From Gammaproteobacteria bacterium (GTDB lineage Bacteria; Pseudomonadota; Gammaproteobacteria; Eutrophobiales; Eutrophobiaceae), in NCBI GenBank assembly GCA_965116495.1, contig OZ220696.1:3008001-3072000 (forward strand): DNA of 64,000 nucleotides. Reading direction: 5' to 3'. This document shows, piece after piece, positions 29,360-30,037 of the stretch. The notes under the pieces are model-generated. The model had not been told where the DNA came from. It saw only the letters and a program-made list of their open reading frames with translations, and made no database searches. How positions within the stretch are numbered: the first letter of the stretch is position 1; each line of letters starts with the position of its first letter. Made by a program: the position numbers and the translations under genes.

Positions 29360-29404
29360 GATCGAATAATATATTATGGGACTTATATACGATAGTGCCG
29401 CACG

Positions 29405-29905
29405 TTAATGCAGCCCAGCCGTATCCGTTTCACGCTTCCCAGGCCGCCTTACATCAGCGCCACCTCCACGTGCAGCAGCCCCATTCCCGAAGGCCAGGAT
29501 ATTTAACGCGGCATTTACGTCCGCATTGTCCCGATGACCGCAGGACAGGCCGGCGGCTATCGAGAAGGACGGAACATGATCGTAATGCGCCTTGAGCTTC
29601 GGTAGGCCGCCTTTGCCTGCATAGAATCTCTTGTATGCGGTCTCTATCGGCTTTAATGACAGCTTGATGATATTAGCCGAATAGTCCTGTAGCCATTCAG
29701 CATAGTGATTGCGCCATACCGTGTACAGCTTGCCGATACTGTACCAGTGGGGATTACACTCGCCATAGAAGCGGTAATCATCCCGCAGCTTGCCGACAAA
29801 GTGATTCCACGTGTAACGGCATGCTTCGGCCAGGCCACGCAGTTGGCGCGCCTTTTCCTTCGTATGGGGATGCAGGCGGTAGCGGATTGTTCGATGTACA
29901 GACAT
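29405..29905 (-). CDS. tnpB: TnpB-family protein, internally deleted in frame (166 aa)
   Basis: N-terminal YRLHP..ACRYTWN..EWL..AYKRF..GLPK.K; C-terminal CGH.DNADVNAALNI (RuvC-III); RuvC-I/II and most of the Zn finger absent. Confidence 0.85.
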   Translation of the reverse strand: MSVHRTIRYRLHPHTKEKARQLRGLAEACRYTWNHFVGKLRDDYRFYGECNPHWYSIGKLYTVWRNHYAEWLQDYSANIIKLSLKPIETAYKRFYAGKGGLPKLKAHYDHVPSFSIAAGLSCGHRDNADVNAALNILAFGNGAAARGGGADVRRPGKRETDTAGLH

Positions 29906-29911
29906 GAGATA

Positions 29912-29940
29912 ATTATAGCATTTTCAAGAGGTTATTTCAC
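29912..29940 (-). promoter_or_regulatory. Sigma70-type promoter of tnpB, probably leaderless
   Basis: Minus strand GTGAAA-17 nt-TATAAT with extended -10 (TGC-TATAAT), 6 nt before the ATG, no RBS. Confidence 0.6.
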
Positions 29941-30037
29941 TTCGGTACTATCGTATATAATTCCCTATATTATCCTGGTCAAAGTTTCCCTTTAACTCAT
30001 TGATCGAAACTGCGTATGATTGGACGGTGGTGATGAC

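Follow-up and report, generated by a model that had tools for sequence, protein, structure and literature searches.

The TnpB nuclease of ISDra2 has a D-E-D triad and a C4 finger and works with an omegaRNA that lies over the tail of its own ORF. A pseudoknot that involves the element’s last bases, at positions -6 to -2, closes this RNA, with the guide starting at +1; a match of roughly 12 bp is needed, and mismatches at positions 13–16 are tolerated (accessible text of PMC10097598; PDB 8H1J, 8BF8). ISDra2 itself has hairpin ends, makes no target-site duplication (TSD) and has a 5-nt TAM that is also the insertion motif of TnpA. Restorative homing and drive are published roles of IS605 TnpBs, according to the available parts of a 2026 review (PMC13565253).

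TnpBs have also been described in DDE transposons. In the branches DDE-1 to DDE-6 of Altae-Tran et al. (2023, PMC10691335), TnpB lies between inverted terminal repeats, with its 3’ end near the end of the element, and solo copies are thought to be moved in trans. The accessible text of that article names only IS630 as a carrier and has IS1595 only in a profile list, and its supplement mentions that DDE-5 has a TA motif, which lies 8 bp upstream of the end. The available parts of the 2026 review list ISL2, IS630 and IS1031 as carriers, call DDE-borne prokaryotic TnpBs rare and uncharacterised, and describe a single solution to the duplicated target, that of Fanzor. Fanzor1 and Fanzor2* are TnpB-family nucleases captured by transposons with terminal inverted repeats (TIRs) and TSDs. 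Their TIR is folded into the RNA scaffold, with the 3’ TSD in the scaffold and the 5’ TSD in the TAM (PMC10711439 and PMC13565253, each in part). IS1595 transposases have a zinc ribbon and a DDE domain, and elements of the family have TIRs of about 23–25 bp starting with GG, make 8-bp TSDs at AT-rich sites (accessible text of PMC8101967; MTnSag1/tISCpe8, PMC5704250) and are reported to form circles (PMC5704250, in part).

The window analysed here is a 64,000-nucleotide stretch of a gammaproteobacterial genome. It contains a small element that shares features with all of these systems: a protein of the ISDra2 TnpB family, the solo arrangement of the DDE branches, IS1595-type ends and, by prediction, a Fanzor-like use of the TIR in the RNA. 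An initial annotation, which had recognised a tnpB between such ends, had left it undecided whether the association was undescribed. TnpB-DDE association in general is published (PMC10691335); IS1595 as the carrier is named neither in the accessible text of that article and of PMC13565253 nor in the literature that we searched by title and abstract. We propose that the element is a nuclease-deleted copy of what is probably a cassette of tnpB and guide RNA between IS1595-type ends, without a transposase, intact members of which would be moved in trans and would spread by cutting empty alleles. New here are a TnpB-free control, a motif switch along the tree, a TIR pseudoknot with covariation, miniatures that hold only the omegaRNA part, and the decay of alleles at a single site.

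A 588-bp element with IS1595-type ends and a tnpB remnant

The element is flanked by genes for a class II aldolase and for a cyclase-family protein (Table 1). Its 23-nt TIR arms are complementary at 21/23 positions, and the exact 8-bp TSD TATATTAT flanks it. The coordinates and the empty sites agree with the 588-bp unit, 23-bp TIRs and exact flanking duplication that had been annotated initially. A tnpB-derived ORF of 166 aa ends 4 bp short of the TIR, as annotated, and the promoter placed ahead of it has a counterpart in a sigma-70-like match. In three congeners (G001, G019 and G003), among 40 relatives searched with the locus, the flanks are joined with one TATATTAT and the element is absent. 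Similarly, in runs X8 and X10 the sequence jumps over exactly 596 bases, and 8 bases at the joint fit either side. These single-copy sites, which had been predicted for relatives, and the 596-base joints thus indicate a true insertion with an 8-bp duplication and not a chance arrangement.

Table 1 Features of the element and its insertion site (window positions).
Feature	Position	Strand	Basis or remark
TSD, 5’ side of tnpB	29966..29973	.	ATAATATA on tnpB strand; single copy at empty sites
5’ (left) TIR, IS1595 type	29943..29965	-	22/23 identical to arms of G000:C1:207383-211373
tnpB promoter, sigma-70-like, extended -10	29912..29940	-	Consensus match only, 10/12
tnpB remnant, 166 aa	29405..29905	-	P0001 residues 1–120 fused in frame to last 46
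Deletion junction, 705 bp relative to P0001	29545..29546	-	Short microhomology; X8 and X18 contigs diverge here
Predicted omegaRNA scaffold over ORF tail and 3’ TIR	29378..29494	-	Covariation in relatives
Predicted pseudoknot, hairpin loop with last six bases	29488-29483 with 29383-29378	-	One A.G mismatch here
3’ (right) TIR	29378..29400	+	Inverted-repeat arm
TSD, 3’ side; predicted first 8 nt of guide	29370..29377	.	Pseudoknot and ISDra2 analogy
Predicted 16-nt guide, TSD and 8 flanking bases	29362..29377	-	Inferred
Predicted TAM, directly 5’ of left TSD	29974..29976	-	AGG on tnpB strand; comparative motif
Guide self-match, opposite strand	29366..29381	+	12/12 seed, 14/16; from 12-bp palindrome; preceded by ATCGA

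The remnant corresponds to a 401-aa TnpB, P0001, from which 235 aa have been removed in frame. The N-terminal part is 98% identical to P0001 (two substitutions) and the last 46 residues are identical. RuvC-I and RuvC-II are missing, as is most of the zinc finger; of the D-E-D triad and C4 finger, which are complete in P0001 (motifs DRN, ENL, C4 finger and DVN), the window copy keeps the RuvC-III D and half the finger. Profile matches of the remnant ORF are weak (PF12323 HTH_OrfB, 26.5 bits; NF040570, 44.3 bits with a cut-off of 100), and P0001 exceeds the NF040570 cut-off with 190.2 bits. We found no other tnpB in this genome, hence no nuclease that could serve the element’s omegaRNA in trans was seen in the assembly. 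A TldR-like repressor role for the remnant was rejected, because an alignment to ISDra2 indicates that most of WED and RuvC, the RNA-holding parts, is gone.

The insertion falls in the -10 box of a promoter predicted on the plus strand for the cyclase gene (window 29347-29375) and lies 10 bp upstream of the aldolase start (29359). The element promoter could read into the aldolase gene, no terminator having been found. Downstream in the window are a HicB-like/HicA-like pair (in 30896-31607) and two ORFs, 31675-33024 and 33165-35882, which from their sequence appearance we take to encode a protein with Sel1-like repeats and one of 905 aa with BNR-like repeats.

The ends are shared with IS1595 transposase elements

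Four further copies of the TIR with at most 4 mismatches occur in the genome, two bounding one element and two unpaired. The bounded element (G000:C1:207383-211373) is 3991 bp long, has the TSD TTTGCGTT and a TIR 22/23 identical to that of the 588-bp element, and encodes an IS1595 transposase (NF033547, 90.6 bits with a cut-off of 75) with a one-base frameshift. In the congener locus L026, an intact 315-aa transposase lies between arms that are again 22/23 identical. A looser pattern retrieved a 2754-bp element (C1:2427608-2430361) with an intact 305-aa IS1595 transposase and only 15/23 TIR bases in common. The transposases of these sister elements have the N-terminal zinc ribbon as well as a DDE_Tnp_IS1595 domain. 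The IS1595-like ends of the initial annotation, and its expectation that a DDE transposase would share the TIR, are thereby borne out; the assignment to the ISNwi1 subgroup, which that annotation based on the subgroup’s end consensus, is tentative.

The 588-bp element has the common TIR and the 8-bp TSD of the IS1595 family and no zinc-ribbon and DDE_Tnp_IS1595 transposase gene of its own. Unlike IS1595 elements with passengers, it has an RNA-guided nuclease as cargo, the RNA of which is predicted to be built into the TIR. The shared ends and the many distinct TSDs of its relatives make mobilisation by an IS1595 transposase in trans likely. Against the main reading, the nearest transposase in the genome is frameshifted and the element with an intact one matches the TIR at only 15/23 bases.

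The frameshift could be real or an assembly error. Passengers of the 3991-bp element (L001:2384-6374) are a SocA-like antitoxin, a DNA methyltransferase and a further ORF, and that of the 2754-bp element is a methyltransferase-HNH-like fusion; both elements carry restriction-modification-like passengers. The unpaired TIR copies lie at G000:C1:1590336, between repeated RTX/serralysin-like genes, and at 1997776, near an IS630-like transposase gene.

The packaging extends across a TnpB lineage

We aligned 66 of the 120 homologues listed and arrived at 80 metagenome and 78 genome loci, to which five congener loci were added and from which one duplicate was dropped. Among 87 loci with at least 36.5% identity to P0001 and downstream room, 82 have a right arm and 67 both arms, compared to none of 43 more distant TnpB loci, with an identity cut that was set after seeing the data and an end profile trained on the same loci. 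A TSD matching at 7/8 or more positions was found in 50 of the 87 and is perfect in 41 of these. Two of the five loci without a right-arm call have clear arms by repeat search (L100 and L165) and two look decayed (L142 and L143). In the fifth (L184:3705-5256), a 38%-identical tnpB lies between the arms of a different, 44-bp inverted repeat starting GGTAGTGCTGC, without a TSD. We take this repeat to be IS1-like, and a switch to another carrier is possible.

In a quick tree search all arm-bearing proteins fall within one 84-row clade (SH-aLRT 99), which includes two long branches without IS1595-type ends. The RuvC residues D184, E273 and D364 are invariant in 27/27 aligned proteins. Record titles are mostly of uncultured Gammaproteobacteria, and also of Chloroflexota and Thermodesulfobacteriota. 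Full-length tnpB copies with the same ends and different 8-bp TSDs, as the initial annotation had predicted, were found in this survey, and the phylogeny that it had proposed as a check gave the single clade. Its central proposal, the capture of a bacterial TnpB lineage by DDE (IS1595) ends, is upheld by the shared ends, the full-length copies and the lineage-wide packaging.

The survey also bears on whether a tnpB unit of IS605 type, hairpin ends included, might have been nested by chance in an unrelated MITE, an arrangement that had been named as fatal to the proposal. The TnpB has its best matches among IS200/IS605 types (NF038281, 142 bits versus 65 for IS607; ISDra2 TnpB, 148.5 bits), in line with such nesting. 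However, IS200/IS605 elements are defined by subterminal hairpin ends without TIR or TSD (PMC13565253), and here TIR and TSD are present, no IS605-type hairpin lies inside the 588-bp element (the leader is unstructured, folding at only -0.2 kcal/mol) and there is no room for TnpA. Dozens of independent insertions have TIRs on both sides of tnpB and TSDs of their own, and the TIR itself forms the predicted pseudoknot described below. Chance nesting is therefore refuted by the lineage survey and has next to no probability.

None of the examined TnpB elements contains an IS1595 transposase and no autonomous TnpB and IS1595 element was found among them, the longer elements containing nested unrelated insertion sequences. 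The lineage differs in this from the DDE branches described previously, although it may itself be DDE-5 or another branch of Altae-Tran et al. One apparent autonomous case (L099) was rejected as an IS1595-like element with its own TIRs that lies beside a distant tnpB by chance. Among 78 viral loci there was one borderline right arm and no left arm, the best plasmid match had 35% identity, with no close member, and P0001 was matched in only 1/60 other genomes of a family-wide sample.

The right TIR completes a predicted omegaRNA

In the surveyed insertions the TIR lies 25–200 bp upstream of tnpB and the stop codon 5–58 bases from the element end, so that an omegaRNA must overlap the ORF tail and the TIR. 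The consensus fold of the relatives has covarying stems, and in the first of these the loop, GGGANT, complements the last six bases of the TIR. The anchor motif was found in 77/97 ends (20 are without it), and in 18 of the 77 the GGGA loop is missing at the scored offset. The glycine codon in the loop is GGG in 59/67 cases versus 19% elsewhere in the same genes. The variable loop position pairs in 54/59 versus 29.3 after shuffling, a comparison uncorrected for the relatedness of the elements (A-U 22, C-G 13, U-G 10, G-U 8, G-C 1, with exchange of A-U for C-G), and the sole A.G mismatch there is that of the window copy. The whole structure is 96.3% paired in 28 rows, with two-sided change at 8 pairs, compared to 32–53% in slid controls; two-sided change within the pseudoknot is seen only in the wide set and is absent from the 28-row alignment.

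Covariation in relatives thus argues for a structured 3’ omegaRNA with a terminal pseudoknot, similar to that of ISDra2. With the last six TIR bases closing the pseudoknot, and by analogy to the guide position in ISDra2, the guide likely starts at base 1 of the TSD, or at base 2 if one linker base stays. This differs from Fanzor in that the TSD is variable and, as the evidence suggests, would serve as the guide seed, with the predicted TAM outside.

Six miniatures (L211, L231, L280, L286, L288 and L299) of 140–213 bp have IS1595 ends and the omegaRNA scaffold and contain no tnpB. They could possibly be guide cassettes served in trans.

A one-sided flank motif is a candidate TAM

We compared the flanks of 65 distinct insertions, window included, with a TSD of at least 7/8. 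On the tnpB strand, the base directly 5’ of the left TSD (-1) is G in 44/65 and C in none, compared to 13/65 each for G and C on the mirror side. As controls we used a small set of 17 TnpB-free elements (34 sides, 15 genomes), picked by their end pattern and only partly from the same transposase families as the TnpB elements; of the first 23, six carrying an omegaRNA were removed, and with two nested duplicates dropped 17 remained. Here base -1 is G in 9/34 and C in 7/34 sides. A C within -1/-2 occurs in 2/65 on the left, 28/65 on the mirror side and 14/34 in the controls. Fisher tests for the one-sided G give 6e-8 and 1e-4, values that are overstated by the kinship of the elements, though every site stands for an insertion of its own.

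The motif follows the TnpB subclades. The basal groups have G in 42/47, and their exceptions are mostly GA (5/47 have A); one derived clade has A in 9/11, mostly as TA, with G in 2/11, and its sister has T in 7/7. The window’s AGG agrees with the G of the basal subclades, and the six miniatures keep the motif of their relatives on the same side (TA, TA, TG, TG, TG and GA). From this pattern we infer a TAM of 1–3 bases just 5’ of the left TSD that switches between G, TA and T with the TnpB subclade. Such a motif would be set off from the element end by the 8-bp TSD, in contrast to the arrangement in ISDra2. Residues equivalent to the TAM contacts Y52, S56, F77 and T123/N124 of ISDra2 vary between subclades, though not one-to-one with the motif.

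The motif might instead be a family-specific target preference of the IS1595 transposases, with tnpB a mere passenger like the methyltransferases elsewhere. IS1595 elements here have varied passengers, the lineages of host, transposase and TnpB co-vary, and in one genome (G106) A stands at -1 in all of three transposase elements and in the TnpB elements too. However, the 17 controls have no motif on either side, and the catalytic residues and a covarying omegaRNA made partly from the TIR are conserved, which a passive passenger would not need. We regard this explanation as rather improbable.

Another way to obtain the motif at insertion would be for TnpB or its RNP to pick the site, reading the TAM and recruiting or orienting the IS1595 transpososome. 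This would fit a motif that is one-sided despite symmetric ends, follows the TnpB tree, is missing from TnpB-free elements and is strongly enriched (42/47 G versus about 23% background). Yet no physical or genetic link to a transposase is seen, none being encoded in the elements, the sites of sibling elements are unlike each other’s guides, and homing together with the assembly of majority alleles gives the same pattern; site choice by TnpB thus seems to us an unlikely origin. In a broader form, the lineage would be an obligate rider of IS1595 ends that biases its own landing, with the TAM outside the TSD, the TIR as pseudoknot, the TSD as seed and miniatures sharing the nuclease, a picture that we hold to be speculative and for which the chances are low. 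That new sites are chosen by the parent’s guide was rejected: identity over the TSD and 12 further bases in 91 close pairs is near that in 1989 distant pairs, with a best of 12/20.

Within the TSD as read on the tnpB strand, none of the 65 TnpB elements has G at base 1, and base 8 is T in 22/65 compared to 29/46 in controls.

A homing model for a duplicated target

Of the preferred reading, a cassette that would be moved in trans and cut empty alleles, the ends, the duplication, the empty site, the ends common to transposase elements, the parent gene and the lineage-wide packaging are established above, and we propose the following course. An IS1595 transposase supplied in trans would insert the cassette at an AT-rich site and duplicate 8 bp. 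A transcript crossing the right TIR would then have its omegaRNA pseudoknot closed by the last six TIR bases, and its guide would begin at the TSD or one base in. With the TAM outside the left TSD, an empty allele would present TAM, TSD and flank, a full target, and would be cut. At the left junction of a filled allele, the TAM would be followed by only 8 matching bases before the TIR; since this is less than the roughly 12 bp needed by ISDra2 TnpB, the filled allele would by analogy fall short of a target. The right junction would present the full target behind the CCC of the TIR and without a motif, C at -1 occurring in 0/65. Repair from the filled allele would copy the element into the cut empty allele.

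Homing into empty alleles is the likely, putative function. We propose that only TAM-adjacent insertions rise in frequency, which would produce a one-sided motif in assemblies. The break left by a DDE donor is already recombinogenic, according to the accessible text of PMC13565253, which would lessen the need for TnpB and counts against homing as an explanation.

The lineage points to a second solution to the duplicated target, in which the TSD would be the guide seed, the TAM would lie outside the TSD and the TIR would form the pseudoknot. It yields exact TAM predictions for three subclades (G, TA and T) and makes it testable in what way a nuclease that homes can keep up with a transposase whose own insertions are not directed to the TAM. 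Furthermore, compact TnpBs with TAMs of 1–3 bases would be useful editing tools.

Decay of the nuclease at the insertion site

The window copy itself is dead, the enzyme that cutting and copying would require having been lost, and is of value because it points to the family and exemplifies decay. It is a nuclease-deleted relic on the way to the omegaRNA-only miniatures of its relatives. In runs X6, X7 and X10 a shorter form, with protein P0124, occupies the same site and represents a second nuclease-removing deletion; in X10 it occurs side by side with the empty allele. Contigs of X8 and X18 follow the window sequence as far as 29545, where they depart from it, and the loose end in X18 reads as the next residues of the parent P0001. 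An undeleted tnpB is thus probably present at the same site in X8 and X18.

Instead of being neutral decay, loss of the nuclease could have been selected because a palindromic site, ATAATATATTAT, made the filled allele a target of its own guide. The self-match (Table 1) is the highest of the 65 elements and lies behind GA, a minority variant of the motif, its mismatches would be tolerated if, as in ISDra2 TnpB (PMC10097598, in part), positions 13–16 are permissive, and the site has suffered the second deletion. However, this is one case, decay is also seen in elements that have no such match (18/65 TnpB elements fail a crude intact-ORF test), the second deletion extends across the junction of the first and may not be independent, and the X8 and X18 contigs suggest that the undeleted form persists. 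Self-targeting is therefore a tentative explanation for the loss, conceivable and more doubtful than not.

Compared to the window, X6 has at least 25 differences over 570 left-flank bases and at least 12 in the first 390 right-flank bases, with at least 3 inside the element among those listed; an X10 contig over 29604-30010 has exactly 3. The low divergence within the element relative to the flanks hints that it has spread between strains, and a hot spot that was hit several times would give the same picture.

Among the relatives, the leaders of L128, L134, L163, L174-L176 and L196 have been invaded by other insertion sequences or 600-bp inserts, with ends and TSD intact, and L210, an unrelated subclade member, has decayed to the identical length of 588 bp.
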